The notes beneath the pieces are model-generated. The model worked only from the letters and a program-made list of their open reading frames with translations, ran no database searches and was not told the DNA's origin. Positions 22,541 to 53,723 of a stretch of 64,000 nt of DNA are shown here, in pieces. A program made the position numbers and the translations under genes. Positions within the stretch are counted from its first letter, which is position 1. Every line of letters starts with the position of its first letter. The stretch spans positions 33,308 to 97,307 of the forward strand of contig CAKOHR010000004.1 of NCBI GenBank assembly GCA_934085825.1. Reading direction: 5' to 3'. Source of the stretch: an uncultured Bacilli bacterium. GTDB lineage: Bacteria; Bacillota_I; Bacilli_A; RF39; UBA660.

Positions 22541-23629
22541 TCATTCCCCTGCCCTTATATTTGTAATTTTCCATGTATTATTATCTTTTATAAAGTATAT
22601 GTAGTCGTGTAGTGTATCTGTTTGATCTTGATTATTAACTAACATATTTTTTTCTGAATAAACTTCACAAGAAAACGCGTCTTTGCTGTATATTATAAAA
22701 TTATTTAATTTTTCATTAGTAAATATCGGATCTTTTAAAGTGTGTTTACTGGTAAAAGTAATGTCGACTTCATGAGCCCAATTGTAAGCTCTACGACTTA
22801 TTTCTGAACCATCTATAAAGTACTCTTTTATTTTATTATAGCCGTGGGCTAATCCTCCTAGGTCATCTGTCAAAAATAAACTCCAATCATGAACAAAAGT
22901 CCAAATGTCTATTTCACTACTTAAATATTTTTTTGCTTTTTCATAATTATCAAATTTCAAGTAATTGTCTTTAACTTTATATGAAAATTTATTTTTTTCT
23001 AAATTCACTTTTTCTCCGTATTCATCAATAGCTTCAACATTCACTTCTTTTGTTAAATTATTAATTTCATAAGTTTTTATGTATGGCATTGATGTATTTA
23101 AGTACATAAAATCTAGATTCTTATATTTTTCTGTTTTTGCTGCCTGTTCTATTTCTTTTCCATCCACGATAATTTTATATGTTGATGGTGCTGTTATATC
23201 ATAGTAAATTAAACCACGGTCTAGATTTGGAATAATTTTTGTTATTTTGCGTATTTCATAACTAAACATACCTAATTTAGTTTCAGTTTTTAAATATTTA
23301 GTTTCAATATCAAATAGTGTTCTTTCATTTAATGTTGCTTCAAAATTATTCTCATCTTTCTTTTTTATTATAATATCTTTGTCTCTTATTAACTCTTTAT
23401 AATCTTTTAAAAGTGACTCATCTAGGTTATTATCTTTTAAATATTCTTTCAAAGTTGAATCATCTAAATTTGCTATTGACGTTTTTATAAAATTTGTTAT
23501 CTGATTTTTTTCATAAGTCTTTAATGTTATAAATATATAAATTAAAAATACAACACATAAACACATAGCTATTATAGTATAAATGAGTAATATCTTCTTA
23601 TACTTTCTTTTTCTCCTTGATCTTGTCAT
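22541..23629 (-). CDS. Membrane-anchored hypothetical protein (envelope cluster)
   Basis: ORF with basic N-terminus MTRSRRKRKYKK plus one TM; start chosen at internal Met to avoid 40-nt overlap with upstream gene. Confidence 0.45.
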   Translation of the reverse strand: MTRSRRKRKYKKILLIYTIIAMCLCVVFLIYIFITLKTYEKNQITNFIKTSIANLDDSTLKEYLKDNNLDESLLKDYKELIRDKDIIIKKKDENNFEATLNERTLFDIETKYLKTETKLGMFSYEIRKITKIIPNLDRGLIYYDITAPSTYKIIVDGKEIEQAAKTEKYKNLDFMYLNTSMPYIKTYEINNLTKEVNVEAIDEYGEKVNLEKNKFSYKVKDNYLKFDNYEKAKKYLSSEIDIWTFVHDWSLFLTDDLGGLAHGYNKIKEYFIDGSEISRRAYNWAHEVDITFTSKHTLKDPIFTNEKLNNFIIYSKDAFSCEVYSEKNMLVNNQDQTDTLHDYIYFIKDNNTWKITNIRAGE

Positions 23630-38391: not shown

Positions 38392-40358
38392 TATTTATCA
38401 CCTAACACTTTCTTATAATAATCATTTACTATGATATTTTTACTCATATTCATTTTATTATTCACTAAATTATTCATATACGATATGTATTCATCACTTA
38501 TTTTTTCATCTTTGTTTTTAGAAATAAATTTGCCTGATGCTGCAAAATAAGTTCCTTTATCACTAACCCAACTTCTATTTCCAAATATTGCGAGTCCTGG
38601 TTCTGTACTTAAAATATCTTTACCGATAATAAGTCTTGAATCATAGCTTGCCCCAAATAAATTATAAATTGTTGGTAATACATCAATTTGACTTCCCACT
38701 TTATCAATATTTACGGTTTCCATTTCACTATTCCATAGAATAAAATTACTTTTGTTTACTTCAACAACTTCATCTTTTTTATAACTTGATATTTCATTTA
38801 CTTCATCAATACTTAAATAATATGGGTAGTGATCTCCAACTAATGCTATCACTGTATTATCTAATTTACCTGCCTCTTTTAATTTATTTATTAAGGTTTC
38901 TAAAGCCCTGTCAAGTTCTATTTGAGCAGCTAAATAGGCTTTAGGCTTTTCACTATATTTTAAATTTGCTACTTCTTCTTGGTGTTTTTTAGCCATTGCA
39001 CTTTGACTAAAAGTATATCCTCCATGTCCACTAACTGTTGCATAATATGTAAAGAATGGCTTATCACTCTTTATATAGTCATCAAATGTGGCATTAATCA
39101 TTTCAACATCTGATTCTGGCCACTGATTACAATTAATACTTTCTTCAAGGCCATTTAAACAACCTTTGAAATTATCAAATCCTAATGCTTTCAAATATTT
39201 GTATCTATCTTGAAAATATATGCTATGATCATGATACGCATATGTGCTGTAACCTAAATTTTTAAAGACTGTAGCTATTCCCATTGGATATGTATTTGTA
39301 CCACTTTTCCAGGGGCTTACAAAACCAGATGCTGCCACTAAACCTGTAAGTTCTTGAAATTCTCCACCAATCGTACTAGAAATAGTTGGTGTATAATAAT
39401 TATTAAATTTAAATCCACTATTTACAAGTTTATAAAGTGTTGGAGTTAAATCTTCTCTTACAGCTATTTCATTGAAACTTTCTGCCATAAAAAGAATTAA
39501 ATTCTTGCCTTCAAAATATTTTGTATATTTATTTTGTTTAGTACCACTTTCATTTTTGAAATATTCATGCATACTTTTAATAGTATCGTCACTTTCATTT
39601 TTTATTAGATCATCAAAATCAATATCTAAGTTATTATATTCATAGGCTATGTCATTTACATTATTTGTATTTTTATTTGTTTTGTCATCATTAATGTTTT
39701 CTATAATATCTACGCTTTCTTTAAAGTTAAATACAAGGCGATAAGAATCTATAAAAAATGTATTTAAAACTCCAAAAGTTCTAACGTTTAAATCAACATT
39801 GTTTATTTTATAATAAAGTTTATATGGAGAATTAATTTCATTTTTATTTATTCTTAAAAATAAGTAAAATGAGCCAATACTTGCCAAACATAAACTACTT
39901 TTAATAAGAGTTATTTTCTTTGCTTGTTTCTCAATTATAATTAAGTAATTTAGTATGGAAAACAATATAAACGGTAAAAATAATAAAATGACGCCGATGA
40001 TGTTATTTAATACTAAATTAATACCATCTTTGGCAAAAGATACAACTTGACCAGAAGCACCAAGCAAACCAAAGTCAAAATAAAAACTAAACATCCTAAA
40101 TACACAAAATTGAATACTATATAGTAAACTTACTAAAAATATATTTACAAGAAATATTATTTTATTGGTTTTTCTGTTAAATATTCTGCCTAATAAATCA
40201 TAAAATAAACTGATAGATAAGTTAAATATTAAAACATAAATAATATTTTTACTAAATATAGTATTTCCAGTTAATATTCTAAATGTTATTTCCATGTATA
40301 ATAATATTATAAAGGTTACTAACCCTAAATAAAACTTTCTTAATCTGAATTTTTTCAT
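38391..40358 (-). CDS. ltaS: Lipoteichoic acid synthase family protein (LtaS-type sulfatase domain)
   Basis: 5 N-terminal TM helices then extracellular sulfatase-like domain (...MAESFNEIAVREDLTPTLYKL...). Confidence 0.85.
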   Translation of the reverse strand: MKKFRLRKFYLGLVTFIILLYMEITFRILTGNTIFSKNIIYVLIFNLSISLFYDLLGRIFNRKTNKIIFLVNIFLVSLLYSIQFCVFRMFSFYFDFGLLGASGQVVSFAKDGINLVLNNIIGVILLFLPFILFSILNYLIIIEKQAKKITLIKSSLCLASIGSFYLFLRINKNEINSPYKLYYKINNVDLNVRTFGVLNTFFIDSYRLVFNFKESVDIIENINDDKTNKNTNNVNDIAYEYNNLDIDFDDLIKNESDDTIKSMHEYFKNESGTKQNKYTKYFEGKNLILFMAESFNEIAVREDLTPTLYKLVNSGFKFNNYYTPTISSTIGGEFQELTGLVAASGFVSPWKSGTNTYPMGIATVFKNLGYSTYAYHDHSIYFQDRYKYLKALGFDNFKGCLNGLEESINCNQWPESDVEMINATFDDYIKSDKPFFTYYATVSGHGGYTFSQSAMAKKHQEEVANLKYSEKPKAYLAAQIELDRALETLINKLKEAGKLDNTVIALVGDHYPYYLSIDEVNEISSYKKDEVVEVNKSNFILWNSEMETVNIDKVGSQIDVLPTIYNLFGASYDSRLIIGKDILSTEPGLAIFGNRSWVSDKGTYFAASGKFISKNKDEKISDEYISYMNNLVNNKMNMSKNIIVNDYYKKVLGDK

Positions 40359-40599
40359 AGACTACCTCTACATGTTCTATTATACCACTAATTATTGCTT
40401 TTATATAATAGATTGTACGAAAATTTACACTTTCAAAGTAAATAAAATTATTAATCAAAAAACTAGATATAAAATCTAGTCAACTTTTCTTAATTTTCAC
40501 TGTAGCTTGGGTACTTCCGCTTTTTTATAAATCATATTTTTGAAGTTTTCCTCATCAATACAGATTTTAATATATCATATCTTTGTGTGTTTGTGATGC

Positions 40600-41061
40600 T
40601 TTTTTAATTGACTTGCATAATTTTTGAATATTCTTCGCACTTTTCCTTTAACAATTTGAAATTACAGCATCTTCTAGCAATGTTATTTTCAGGAACCAAA
40701 TTCTTTAAAACATATATAATTTTTTATCTCTCTGATTATCAAATATTCTAAATTCTTCAAGATTGTCAAATGTTACTCGAGTATAGTTTGATGATGTAAC
40801 AGGTATCATATTATTTAAATCTATTGCTCCATATATTTTTCCAGTTTTGTAATTCACAATTTTAAAAAAGTCTAAATCGTTTTTCATGTTATCAAATTTT
40901 TTCTTATATGATGTTAATGGTGCAAAAAAATCAGTTCCATCTAATCTCAAAATAATACCTAAAAAACATTTCATCTTGTTTTTATATTCAACATTTGGTA
41001 CAAATTTATCATATTTCTTTAAGTATTTTATGTAATCATTGTTTATTGAATACCAAAACAT
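40600..41061 (-). pseudogene. toxN: toxN/abiQ-family type III toxin gene, disrupted (premature stop after residue 118; C-terminal homology continues in another frame)
   Basis: MFWYSINNDYIKYLKKYDKFVPN...KCFLGIILRLDGTDFFAPLTSYKK...IDLNNMIPV resembles ToxN; stop after ...DKKLYMF; the +1 frame encodes LKNLVPENNIARRCCNFKLLKEKCEEY matching ToxN C-terminus (LRNLVLQGKMQGTCNFSLLEEKY); strong RBS AGGGGGAG. Confidence 0.65.
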
Positions 41062-41081
41062 TTTATCTCCCCCTAAACAAA

Positions 41082-41108
41082 GGATTATTTTCGTATAGAA
41101 AATAATCC
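41082..41108 (-). terminator. Terminator between ToxI repeats and toxN
   Basis: GGATTATTTT-CGTATAG-AAAATAATCC hairpin followed by U-rich tract on minus strand. Confidence 0.55.
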
Positions 41109-41226
41109 CACTTTTAATGTCACTTTTGAACTGGATGTGAGAACCACTTTATTGTTCACTTTTGAACTGGACGTGAGAACCACTTTATTGTTCACTTTTG
41201 AACTGGATGTGAGAACCACTGTAAGG
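41108..41226 (-). ncRNA. toxI: ToxI-like antitoxin RNA: tandem 36-nt repeats (3 full-length copies plus a partial)
   Basis: CACTTTTGAACTGGATGTGAGAACCACTTTATTGTT at 41121-41156, again 41157-41192 (one T>C), third copy 41193-41226 diverging at the end; partial copy 41108-41120; candidate promoter TTACAA-16-TATATT at ~41240-41275 (minus). Confidence 0.7.
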
Positions 41227-41312
41227 AAACTTTGTTTCCATATATTTTATGAGATATACCTCATTAATACATATTTAATATAGCATATTGTTGCGTGCTT
41301 GTAAAGCTTTTT

Positions 41313-42635
41313 TTATTTTATTTCCACTTTCTTCAATGTGCCATTTTCTAATATAAATAAATCATTCGTATAACTTTTTACTAAAGGGTATTTTATATTG
41401 TCATCATTACTATAAAGATAACCCACGCTAGTAACCATTGGTATTTCTAGGGTCTTAAATTCATCTTTTATATTATTTAAATCTTTATAATATAAAGTAT
41501 CTTTTGTGCTATCATTTGCAACTATAAGTAAATAATTATCAATAACTACTACTCTATCCACATTATCTATATCAAATGTAATATTTATTTGTCCAGTATT
41601 ATCTTCAAGTATTGCTTTATCTTTCTTTTTATAAATGTGATAAACAGATCCATCTTCTAAAGCAAACTTGAAATCATCATAACTGTAATAATGTGTTTCA
41701 ACTTGAGAAAACTTCTTGGTATCATAATTTGTACATATGTAATAGTCTTCCGCACTTGCTCCAAATAAACCAAATAAAATATTTGATGTAAATAAAAGGC
41801 CAATAAGAAGAAATATACCATTATTACATATCTTTTTTTTCTTTTCTTCAAAAATAGATGCTGAATAGAGTAAATAAATTAGACTTAGTATTAGTGATGC
41901 CACCATACTTGCCGCTGTTATACTAATTGGAACATTATCAGCATAGCCACAATTAGTTATTAAATTAACTTCACTAAGTAAAACAGAAAAATCATAAAAA
42001 CTATGAATAAAAATCATGGCCCATATATTACGAGTTTTGTAATATACTGTACCAAATAAAATTCCTATTGCCATTGTTTGTACAAATTGCATCATCGTTG
42101 TAAGTAAATCTTGACCAGCAAGTAAATTAGTTAAGTGAACGGTTCCAAATATTACTCCACTTATTATAATAGATACTATTACTTCTTTTTTATTACTGCT
42201 ATATTTTTCTAAAAGTTCATTTTCTATTATTCCTCTAAAAAATATTTCTTCAAATAGGCCAATTAATATAACATATACTATTAAGCTTACCAAATTGCTA
42301 GTATTTATTTTTGTACCAATTAATTGTCCGGCATTGGAAAATAATACTATAATTGATAATATGACAATTGGCAAACATGTTTCTACAGATTTTGTAAAGG
42401 GAATTTTTCTTTCTTTAAATATATAACTTTTTTTTCTTATTTTTAAAAGAATAATAGATAAAATAAATACTACAAATTCACTTGTGGCATATATCATATA
42501 TTTGCCATTTAACATGCTGGCATACACAACTGAGTTTATTACTCTTCCCACAGTATTTATTAGAAATTCAAATATTATAAAAATAAATACAACTTTGGCT
42601 ATAATCGGCCAAATATTATTTTTCTTTTCTTCCAT
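41313..42635 (-). CDS. CPBP-family (CAAX/Abi) intramembrane metalloprotease with C-terminal extra domain
   Basis: Polytopic membrane protein with LFEEIFFRG and FGTVHL motifs; ~180-aa C-terminal soluble domain. Confidence 0.75.
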   Translation of the reverse strand: MEEKKNNIWPIIAKVVFIFIIFEFLINTVGRVINSVVYASMLNGKYMIYATSEFVVFILSIILLKIRKKSYIFKERKIPFTKSVETCLPIVILSIIVLFSNAGQLIGTKINTSNLVSLIVYVILIGLFEEIFFRGIIENELLEKYSSNKKEVIVSIIISGVIFGTVHLTNLLAGQDLLTTMMQFVQTMAIGILFGTVYYKTRNIWAMIFIHSFYDFSVLLSEVNLITNCGYADNVPISITAASMVASLILSLIYLLYSASIFEEKKKKICNNGIFLLIGLLFTSNILFGLFGASAEDYYICTNYDTKKFSQVETHYYSYDDFKFALEDGSVYHIYKKKDKAILEDNTGQINITFDIDNVDRVVVIDNYLLIVANDSTKDTLYYKDLNNIKDEFKTLEIPMVTSVGYLYSNDDNIKYPLVKSYTNDLFILENGTLKKVEIK

Positions 42636-52760: not shown

Positions 52761-53723
52761 TTATCTCCTAAAACTTAAATATTGAGGAATTTTTTCATCT
52801 AATTCCCTGGCATTAAAAATTACCTTAAATAAATTGTATGCTATTTTTTGATTGGAATTCTTTTTTAAAGCTTGCATTAAAATATCACTATTATCTTTAA
52901 GGCTTTTTACGCATTCTATGGGGGCTAAAGCAAAAGCAGCTCTTAAAATACAACTATCAAAAATAATTTTACTTAAAAAAGTTTTATCATGATAAATGTT
53001 ATCTTGTATTTTTTCTATTTCCTCTCCTATTATTACGAATAAACTTATAGTTTCTGATTGTTTAATCATATCGGTATATGATATTTCTGATTCATCAAGT
53101 ATATATAGACCACTTGATATGTAAGGACTTAAATTTACTTCAAAATTATTACTCATTAGTTCTTTTTCAATTGTTGGCATTACCAGTGCCATTTTATATT
53201 TGTTTTTTATCTTTTCATTTGATTCTATTAAGTATTTATTTTGTTCAAAAATACTTAAAGCAACTTTCATAATATCTGTGTACATTTCTAATATGTATAA
53301 AGAACTAGGAAAATCCTCTTTGGATGCTTTTTCATTGTTTATAGCAATTTTAACAGCGTGAATATCATTGGATACTCTTGTTTTTATCATATCATTTTCT
53401 TCATCTTTGGCAGTTGAGTGTATACCTACAGTTAAATTGTATTTTTCTTCATCTTTGGCAGTTAAGTGTATACCTACAGTTAAATTGTATTTTTCTTCCA
53501 CATAGTCTATTATCTCATTAATTTTACCAGATAATTTTAATCTTTTTAAAATATTTGTTTCTATTAATTTATTATCTTCTAAATTTTTTAATTCTACGTT
53601 GTACTCATTACTGTTTTTTAAATTGTTAATTTCTAAACGTGATAAATTTTCGTAATTTTTATATATATTACTTGCTACATTCATTAACATTTCTACATCA
53701 TAAATAATTTCTTTACTTATCAT
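52761..53723 (-). CDS. Hypothetical protein, paralog of the next gene; contains in-frame 48-nt tandem duplication
   Basis: Weak similarity to 53742-54767 product (EKYNLTVGIH vs EKYNLPISLY and surrounding). Confidence 0.5.
   Translation of the reverse strand: MISKEIIYDVEMLMNVASNIYKNYENLSRLEINNLKNSNEYNVELKNLEDNKLIETNILKRLKLSGKINEIIDYVEEKYNLTVGIHLTAKDEEKYNLTVGIHSTAKDEENDMIKTRVSNDIHAVKIAINNEKASKEDFPSSLYILEMYTDIMKVALSIFEQNKYLIESNEKIKNKYKMALVMPTIEKELMSNNFEVNLSPYISSGLYILDESEISYTDMIKQSETISLFVIIGEEIEKIQDNIYHDKTFLSKIIFDSCILRAAFALAPIECVKSLKDNSDILMQALKKNSNQKIAYNLFKVIFNARELDEKIPQYLSFRR
53397..53492. repeat. In-frame 48-nt tandem duplication (EEKYNLTVGIHLTAKD / EEKYNLTVGIHSTAKD)
   Basis: Two adjacent 48-nt units differing at one base. 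Confidence 0.8.

Follow-up and report, generated by a model that had tools for sequence, protein, structure and literature searches.

A ToxIN-family type III toxin-antitoxin locus with a truncated toxin gene and an intact ToxI-like repeat array in an uncultured gut member of the Bacilli

A 64-kb stretch of contig CAKOHR010000004.1 from an uncultured Bacilli bacterium (hereafter the window) carries a ToxIN-family type III toxin-antitoxin (TA) locus in which the toxin gene, toxN-1, is broken and the upstream antitoxin array is complete. We consider it highly probable that the toxin was inactivated by a real 70-nucleotide (nt) microhomology deletion, that the array and regulatory elements are intact because this event was recent, and that the locus lies beside the stump of a second, tandem unit. 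The original prediction for this region, made from the DNA alone, had described a minus-strand order of promoter, repeats, terminator, ribosome-binding site (RBS), and toxN, and every one of these elements is present. The appropriate annotation is a ToxIN-family type III TA pseudogene with an intact ToxI-like array, rather than a working defense system or an abortive-infection (Abi) island shared with the neighboring CPBP-family gene. The locus offers a clean natural case of asymmetric TA decay, in which the toxin was lost first and the antitoxin RNA was left behind.

The toxin remnant and its deletion

The features of the first unit are as follows.

41305..41277, minus strand: promoter-like site P_A, with a -35 TTTACA, a 17-nt spacer, and a TG-extended -10 TATATT (10 of 12 in a consensus scan, TG present)
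41264..41225, minus strand: leader with two small hairpins 5' of the repeats, ATGAG-N6-CTCAT (41264-41249) and GGAAAC-AAA-GTTTCC (41239-41225)
41220..41108, minus strand: ToxI-like antitoxin array A, with 36-nt unit AGTGGTTCTCACATCCAGTTCAAAAGTGAACAATAA at 41220-41185, 41184-41149, and 41148-41113, plus 5 nt
41109..41081, minus strand: predicted Rho-independent terminator or attenuator between array A and the toxin gene, with a 12-bp stem and a 5-nt loop, then TTGTTT
41074..41067, minus strand: RBS AGGGGGAG, 5 nt upstream of the ATG, read from the sequence
41061..40705, minus strand: toxN-1 5' fragment, a 118-codon ATG-initiated open reading frame (ORF); residues 1 to 116 are native ToxN, followed by M-F-stop
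40725..40721, minus strand: deletion junction, with 70 nt missing relative to intact alleles
40724..40604, minus strand: toxN-1 3' fragment, out of frame, with codons ~141 to 175 and the stop, encoding ...NIARRCCNFKLLKEKCEEYSKIMQVN

The 118-codon ORF matches positions 1 to 102 of the 159-position Pfam profile ToxN_toxin (PF13958) with an E value of 1.8e-29 and a score of 103 bits (cut-off, 25), and it matches the AbiQ model of PADLOC with an E value of 4.5e-23. The conserved C terminus lies in another frame, as had been noticed from the DNA: a 31-codon ORF at 40699-40604 (minus strand), which contains CCNFKLLKEKCEEY, matches the last 21 positions of the ToxN profile (139 to 159; E value, 0.0035), and tblastn of the intact toxin places residues 137 to 175 in this out-of-frame 3' fragment. 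The relatives that we compared belong to an uncultured gut Erysipelotrichaceae group whose GTDB representative is the metagenome-assembled genome RUG14232 (L002), and most of their contigs come from human-gut metagenomes (Hadza and other). Among them, a protein search identified an intact 175-amino-acid (aa) toxin, P0002, that is 98% identical to the window toxin. Searching structures with the P0002 sequence returned ToxN (2xd0 at 2e-15, 7d8o, and 4ato) and AbiQ (4glk), with E values from 2e-15 to 2e-7. An AlphaFold2 model of a second intact allele, P0043 (mean predicted local distance difference test score, 91; predicted template modeling [TM] score, 0.87), matches 7d8o, 2xd0, 4ato, and 4glk over its full length with TM scores of 0.71 to 0.77. 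Among toxN homologues of 80 other species representatives, most are accompanied by a 32- to 40-nt repeat in two to four copies that ends just upstream of the gene. The profile and structure matches, the class-defining layout, and the recurrence of that layout in other species all bear out the ToxIN/AbiQ type III assignment made in the original prediction.

P0002 is the sole full-length allele from an NCBI genome, and at codon 50 (L001 6145-6150) it encodes R50 instead of the T50 of every other homologue. The aligned residue in the Pectobacterium atrosepticum ToxN is the active-site T52, and P0002 may therefore represent a further loss-of-function allele.

The contig that encodes P0002 (L001) is syntenic with the window, with genes for patatin, YebC, an Rce1-like protein, and ToxN and, farther along, a sulfatase. 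In a DNA alignment the window lacks 70 nt of this contig (L001 6338-6407) at window position 40725/40724, and the same gap is present against L089 and L094. In the intact alleles, the missing segment is bounded by two copies of an 11-nt direct repeat, AAAAATTATAT, of which one copy is left in the window. The exact breakpoint is ambiguous within AAAAATTATAT because the deletion lies between its two copies, and the loss bears the signature of a slipped-strand or microhomology-mediated deletion. The exact 118-aa product is encoded on 13 contigs, which include Hadza gut SPAdes assemblies, MERR22 scaffolds, MEGAHIT k141 contigs, and Logan unitigs, and two of these (L097 and L098) share the same event (a 70-nt deletion at nt 338), a three-copy array, and 100% identical flanks. 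As the lesion is identical on contigs from different samples and assemblers, it is a real, segregating allele. This agrees with the earlier description of a toxin that stops after 118 aa. The accompanying estimate that about 18 residues were deleted does not hold, given that 70 nt correspond to 23 1/3 codons and shift the frame.

The deletion removes W117 to approximately Y140 (codons 117 to 140) and puts everything downstream out of frame, such that the window ORF ends ...KKLY-MF-stop and encodes 118 aa instead of the 175 aa of the intact form. Across 25 aligned full-length homologues, W117, L119, L120, and E123 do not vary, and A136, R154, C155, C156, L161, K164, C165, and Y168 are nearly invariant. 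The P0043 model has its beta-strands within residues 4 to 95 and helices at 110-126, 129-145, 150-153, and 158-174. The deleted segment takes out the four invariant residues together with predicted helices 110-126 and 129-145, and the frameshift removes the remainder, so that all model helices from 110 to 174 are lost. In the Escherichia coli ToxN, a kinked helix (Pro109-Gln141) has been described as crucial in gripping the edges of ToxI pseudoknots (PMC8860590). By the structural model, the helix pair 110-126 and 129-145 is the predicted counterpart of this kinked helix, and the deleted segment is the part predicted to bind the antitoxin RNA. The fragment keeps Y26, K31, T50, S51, and K53, which align (to 2xd0) with the active-site residues Y29, K33, T52, S53, and K55 of the P. 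atrosepticum ToxN (PMC5086642).

Criteria for type III TA systems of the ToxIN family were taken from Blower et al. 2012 (PMC3401426). The window has homology to PF13958/AbiQ, a same-strand tandem array upstream of the toxin gene, and a palindromic terminator between the two, and it lacks a complete toxin ORF comprising the beta-core and the helices, including the RNA-binding kinked helix. With a 118-aa product devoid of helices 110 to 174, the locus is therefore a decayed member of the ToxIN family and not a working one.

The antitoxin array and the second tandem unit

Tandem Repeats Finder reports array A as a 36-nt repeat in 3.1 copies (93% matches; score, 196) and as the sole repeat of this kind in the window; the 36-nt period given in the original prediction thus stands, and its count of 3.3 copies is slightly too high. 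The array ends 47 nt before the ATG of toxN-1 on the same strand. P_A belongs to a module of approximately 50 nt (AAAGCTTTACAAGCACGCA...) that recurs within the locus, twice in the window and three times in L001, L089, and L109. The module is kept across alleles, and the promoter is predicted from a consensus match. Promoter-like sites are not enriched in this AT-rich DNA (10 found versus 8.7 expected from shuffles), and the P_A call thus rests on position and conservation, not on statistics. Terminator-like sites are enriched, with 3 found versus 0.1 expected from shuffles, and the terminator hairpin at 41109..41081 appears in both the minimum-free-energy (MFE) and centroid folds. Folding of 41270-41070 likewise yields both leader hairpins in the MFE and the centroid structure, and the second was detected on the opposite strand by the terminator scan.

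The promoter module, three repeats, terminator, and RBS match those of loci with intact toxins (L001 and L089-L096) unit for unit. Array A with its terminator is 97 to 100% identical to these loci, the terminator itself is 100% identical, and the lone A-to-G difference in the second unit of the array is also present in loci with intact toxins. By these comparisons array A shows no decay, and the proposed combination of a disrupted toxin with an intact array is upheld by the 13 contigs with the identical allele and by an array that is the same as that of intact-toxin loci.

All repeat units start with an invariant AAG after an A-rich linker. We tested the repeats for an H-type pseudoknot with the pairing order a-b-a'-b'. 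When all repeat families were aligned together with MAFFT (A2), their registers did not agree, and we therefore counted covariation only within the gapless families A3, A5, and A6. In the repeat family of the window (eight distinct units, gapless), helix a changes from UGG/CCA to AGG/CCU and CAG/CUG, which is compensatory at two of the three pairs. Overall, 98% of cells for this helix are paired, a result equaled by 1 of 500 column shuffles, and sliding the 3' partner by one to three columns as a control lowers pairing to 25 to 36%. Helix b covaries in a sister family of nine units, with exchanges from UA to CG and from CG to UA (1/500). The repeat fold is consistent with a ToxI-like pseudoknot that is partly backed by covariation and not proven. 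Cleavage specificities reported for the ToxN family are AA/AU, A/AAAA, and A/AAA, with A/AAAA and A/AAA reported for Bacillus thuringiensis ToxIN and Lactococcus lactis AbiQ (PMC5086642), and by analogy the repeats are likely to be processed in the A-rich linker ...ACAAUAAAG....

Based on the family members of Pectobacterium, B. thuringiensis, E. coli, and Lactococcus (AbiQ), a single promoter in the intact form would transcribe the 36-nt array. Most transcripts would end at the hairpin terminator, and read-through would produce the toxN mRNA. The ToxN endoribonuclease would then cut the precursor in the A-rich linkers to yield 36-nt pseudoknots, each of which would bridge two ToxN molecules and block their active sites, until phage infection upset the balance, freed ToxN, and aborted the infection. 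In the window, a slippage-type 70-nt deletion leaves only a 118-aa beta-core fragment to be made. This fragment, without the 59 C-terminal residues, is most likely inactive, and the locus would for that reason no longer defend or addict its host. Since the promoter, repeats, terminator, and RBS are indistinguishable from those of loci with intact toxins, a ToxI-like RNA is probably still made, as an unprocessed orphan.

Several observations weigh against parts of this interpretation. Helix b (UCAC/GUGA) is invariant in the repeat family of the window and hence uninformative. The third repeat family (A6, Lachnospiraceae-type) showed no covariation in favor of helix b, and a different, long-range helix can be drawn for it. 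A brute-force pseudoknot search on single sequences performed no better than shuffles for most units and was not used as evidence. For the pseudoknot check on the 36-nt unit suggested in the original prediction, partial support comes from the covariation of helix a in the repeat family of the window and of helix b in the sister family, and none from the folding of single sequences. In addition, an Rfam scan of 40300-41500 at E values of up to 10 gave no ToxI-relevant match, and its sole overlap was a chance match to RsaE (E value, 0.9); an absent match would be expected if the curated models derive from unrelated ToxI sequences. Concerning the toxin, none of the five residues aligned with the ToxN active site is missing from the fragment, and Blower et al. 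2012 (PMC3401426) left open whether partial type III toxins are toxic. Finally, the sequence covers 64 kb of the genome, and an intact toxN elsewhere might use array A, although tblastn found no second toxN within the window.

Directly downstream of toxN-1, the window keeps what sequence comparison identifies as the stump of a second, tandem ToxIN unit (40597-40457; compare L001 6530-7374), which was absent from the original prediction. It consists of the following features.

40597..40569, minus strand: P_B remnant, with the -35 changed from TTTACA to ATCACA and the -10 TATATT with TG kept; the intact P_B lies in L001 at 6535-6563
40520..40483, minus strand: array B, a single unit left (GCGGAAGTACCCAAGCTACAGTGAAAATTAAGAAAAGT); relatives with toxN-2 have 3.3 copies
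40482..40457, minus strand: AT-rich hairpin and T-run after array B (TGACTAGATTTTATATCTAGTTTTTT), below the G+C threshold of the terminator scanner

In L001, L089-L093, and L109-L112, the stop of toxN-1 is followed by a second copy of the promoter module, array B, a hairpin, a third module, a terminator-like hairpin, and toxN-2. Array B of these relatives is built from a different 36-nt repeat in 3.3 copies (L001 6602-6719), and toxN-2 encodes a protein of 168 aa that is 36% identical to that of toxN-1. The third promoter module and toxN-2 are absent after the B hairpin in the window, and tblastn found no trace of toxN-2 in the 64 kb. The copy number of array B follows toxN-2 across 50-odd loci, with three copies in precisely those loci that carry the gene and one or two in those that lack it. 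This tracking supports array B as the antitoxin cognate to toxN-2.

The third promoter module and the terminator-like hairpin (L001 6766-6837) lie between array B and toxN-2 in L001 (6535-6868) and also in L089 and L109. The array-B RNA and toxN-2 thus appear to have separate copies of one promoter, which would be unusual for type III systems. The module (AAAGCTTTACAAnCACGCA ... TGnTATATT) occurs in the window at 41310-41292 and 40602-40584 and in L001 at 5751, 6530, and 6761, and 79 other species lack it at their toxN loci. Recombination between its copies may underlie the gain and loss of units.

Recurrent toxin loss and competing explanations

At least seven independent lesions disrupt toxN-1 across the species complex.

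70-nt deletion at nt 338: 118 aa; 13 contigs (window and L097-L101)
1-nt deletion in an A-run at nt 345: 119 aa; 8 contigs for allele P0044 (L002 and L102-L108; L082 with an extra 1-nt insertion)
3' end replaced after nt ~404, plus a stop: 109 aa; 16 contigs (L083-L088)
1-nt deletion at nt 132 and 1-nt insertion at nt 192: 48 aa; 9 contigs (L109-L115)
1-nt deletions at nt 27 and nt 159: 10 aa from the original start, with the database allele P0039 (117 aa) being the C-terminal part; 9 contigs (L123 and L124)
1-nt insertion at nt 192: 66 aa; 8 contigs jointly with the next lesion (L126, L130, and L132)
Stop at codon 67, no indel detected: 66 aa; 8 contigs jointly with the preceding lesion (L127, L129, and L131)

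Furthermore, allele P0033 ends fused to the array-B region. Among the alleles looked up, disrupted ones account for at least 63 contigs and intact ones (P0002, P0043, P0048, and P0041) for 16, a ratio that is only indicative given the uneven sampling. A scan of JGI metagenomes with the intact toxin found a single locus, L082, which belongs to the same species group and has two frameshifts. No intact toxN-1 was found in the flank lineage of the window itself, where both alleles (the 70-nt deletion and the 109-aa form) are dead. Single-copy A arrays were seen only beside dead toxins (L084, L086, and L109-L113), and three loci with the same toxin alleles (L083, L088, and L114) keep three copies; loci with intact toxins have two or three copies, and assembly collapse is possible for the single-copy arrays. 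Judged from these alleles, the loss of toxN-1 is tolerated in the population. Several of the lesions lie near apparent homopolymer runs (approximately nt 132, 192, and 345), which could reflect either switching that resembles phase variation or mere mutational hotspots.

The array and toxin gene are far more alike between lineages than are the surrounding genes. Between the window lineage and the L001, L002, and L094 lineages, nucleotide identity is approximately 88% for the patatin gene, approximately 94% for yebC, 79 to 83% for the CPBP gene, and 79 to 85% for the sulfatase gene. In contrast, nt 1 to 345 of toxN-1 are 98.5 to 98.8% identical to the window in five of six compared loci and 96.5% identical in L089. 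Over sliding 60-nt segments, the window is 95 to 100% (mostly 97 to 100%) identical to L002 and L094 from the first repeat (~41202) to just past the toxN-1 stop (~40612), after which identity falls back to approximately 87%; the promoter itself is just 83 to 86% identical. The tract 41202-40612 thereby stands out against flanks (41860-41203 and 40611-39900) that are 75 to 88% identical. Because purifying selection cannot keep a pseudogene or synonymous sites 99% identical amid neighboring housekeeping genes that have diverged by 12 to 21%, a recent exchange of the array and toxin is the simplest reading. The pattern suggests that the array-plus-toxin unit was recently transferred between lineages and then repeatedly inactivated. 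Viral contigs gave no match to the repeat (two patterns, for pseudo-ToxI mimics) or to the toxin and hence no support for a phage decoy or a phage-borne cassette, and in PLSDB the plasmid-encoded ToxN homologues were at most 33% identical, such that no plasmid vehicle was found. Together, the many independent lesions and the near-identical cassette hint at rapid gain and loss of Abi systems in a human-gut commensal.

A more far-reaching version of this account, which we regard as rather doubtful, is that the array and toxN form a small exchangeable cassette that was recently swapped between lineages whose flanking genes are 12 to 25% apart and that is repeatedly switched off, often at homopolymer runs. 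This would amount to on/off cycling of an Abi toxin at the level of the population, with orphan arrays retained as immunity against reacquired or incoming cognate toxins. If this were true, the window would represent one irreversible "off" state.

It is also conceivable, although unlikely, that the orphan array has been selected to neutralize ToxN arriving via plasmids, phages, or recombination with sister lineages, which would provide anti-addiction or immunity in trans. The promoter, three repeats, and terminator are indeed unchanged beside a dead toxin, and the evident exchange of the array-plus-toxN unit between diverged lineages (97 to 100% versus 75 to 88% in the flanks) makes incoming cognate toxins plausible. 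However, the toxin remnant is as well conserved as the array (98.5 to 98.8%), and recency therefore explains the intact array without selection. Moreover, other dead-toxin alleles have contracted to one array copy (L084, L086, and L109-L113), and this toxin or repeat was not found on any phage contig or plasmid searched.

We see even less reason to regard the 118-aa product as a functional shortened nuclease or regulator, a very improbable option. The fragment does keep the beta-core (strands up to residue 95) and the five active-site-aligned residues, its RBS and start codon are intact, and other type III loci also combine short toxins with full arrays (PMC3401426). Yet 59 of 175 residues are gone, including the invariant W117, L119, L120, and E123, the nearly invariant RCC..L..KC motif, and the antitoxin-binding helix, and a toxin that could not be neutralized would be lethal, whereas the allele is common. 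Lesions also break the gene at many further sites, codons 10, 48, and 66 among them, which argues for tolerated loss of function and not for selection of the short form. An assembly or sequencing artifact in an intact system is scarcely credible and was rejected: the source is probably a metagenome assembly and several other alleles differ by single bases in homopolymer runs, which are typical error sites, but a loss of 70 nt is no homopolymer slip, the 11-nt repeat that flanks it does not reach the length of any assembler k-mer and cannot mislead assemblers with k of 21 or more, and the identical product occurs on 13 contigs from different samples (SPAdes, MEGAHIT, and Logan), two of which (L097 and L098) have flanks that are 100% identical.

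Known systems and neighboring genes

The decayed locus, with its predicted promoter, has the same order of promoter, 36-nt repeats, terminator, and toxN as the ToxIN systems of P. atrosepticum plasmid pECA1039 (2xd0, 2xdb, and 2xdd) and E. coli (7d8o). The intact relative aligns with these toxins over its full length (E values, 2e-15 and 4e-15; TM scores, 0.71 to 0.77; 31% identity), and they share active-site residues, the predicted kinked helix, and a proposed a-b-a'-b' pairing of repeats with A-rich linkers. The P. atrosepticum ToxIN has 5.5 repeats, whereas the window has 3.1 repeats of unrelated sequence. The locus in the window is chromosomal in a Gram-positive gut anaerobe instead of plasmid-borne, and its toxin is truncated at residue 116. 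Compared with the ToxIN of B. thuringiensis plasmid pAW63 (4ato) and the AbiQ/antiQ system of L. lactis (4glk), the locus belongs to the same Pfam family, is likewise from the Firmicutes, and has about three repeats of 34 to 36 nt. The folds match (TM scores, 0.73 to 0.77), but identity is only 22 to 24%, and both of those systems, in contrast to the decayed locus of the window, are intact and have a proven ability to abort phage infection.

The closest parallels to the decay itself are loci with partial toxins described by Blower et al. 2012 (PMC3401426), which also have full repeats and a terminator beside a shortened toxin. For example, the cptIN loci of Bryantella formatexigens encode toxins of 66 and 45 aa beside full arrays (PMC3401426). 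The family is well described, and truncated toxins beside complete arrays were reported in 2012. The examples named there are cptIN and tenpIN loci in single genomes, whereas in the present case the ancestral allele, the deletion mechanism, and the lesion frequencies are visible in public metagenomes. What is new is a well-resolved example from gut Erysipelotrichaceae with an ancestral state, a mutational mechanism, an allele spectrum, and a hint of cassette exchange.

On one side, the locus borders the gene for an Rce1-like/CPBP membrane protease of 440 aa (41313-42635) and, on the other, the gene for a membrane protein of 655 aa from the sulfatase family (PF00884; 38391-40358). The match of the protease to the Rce1-like/CPBP family (PF02517) has an E value of 2.7e-22, which confirms the CPBP/Abi-type protease that had been noted next to the toxin; PADLOC gave no match for it. 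A CPBP homologue within 3 kb of toxN was found only in this species group and, among approximately 80 other loci, as one weak partial match (L044). We considered the protease as a functional partner of the toxin and rejected it, as its adjacency to toxN is confined to this species group and represents plain synteny. A neighbor that is conserved in this group only does not speak for an Abi island. The C-terminal half of the protein (~220 aa) has no significant Pfam match, and its gene is among the most diverged between lineages (79 to 83%). Elsewhere in the window, a 42-nt repeat in 2.0 copies at 23386-23516 adjoins a 24-nt repeat in 2.0 copies, and a 48-nt repeat is present in 2.2 copies at 53395-53498 (98% matches; score, 201).

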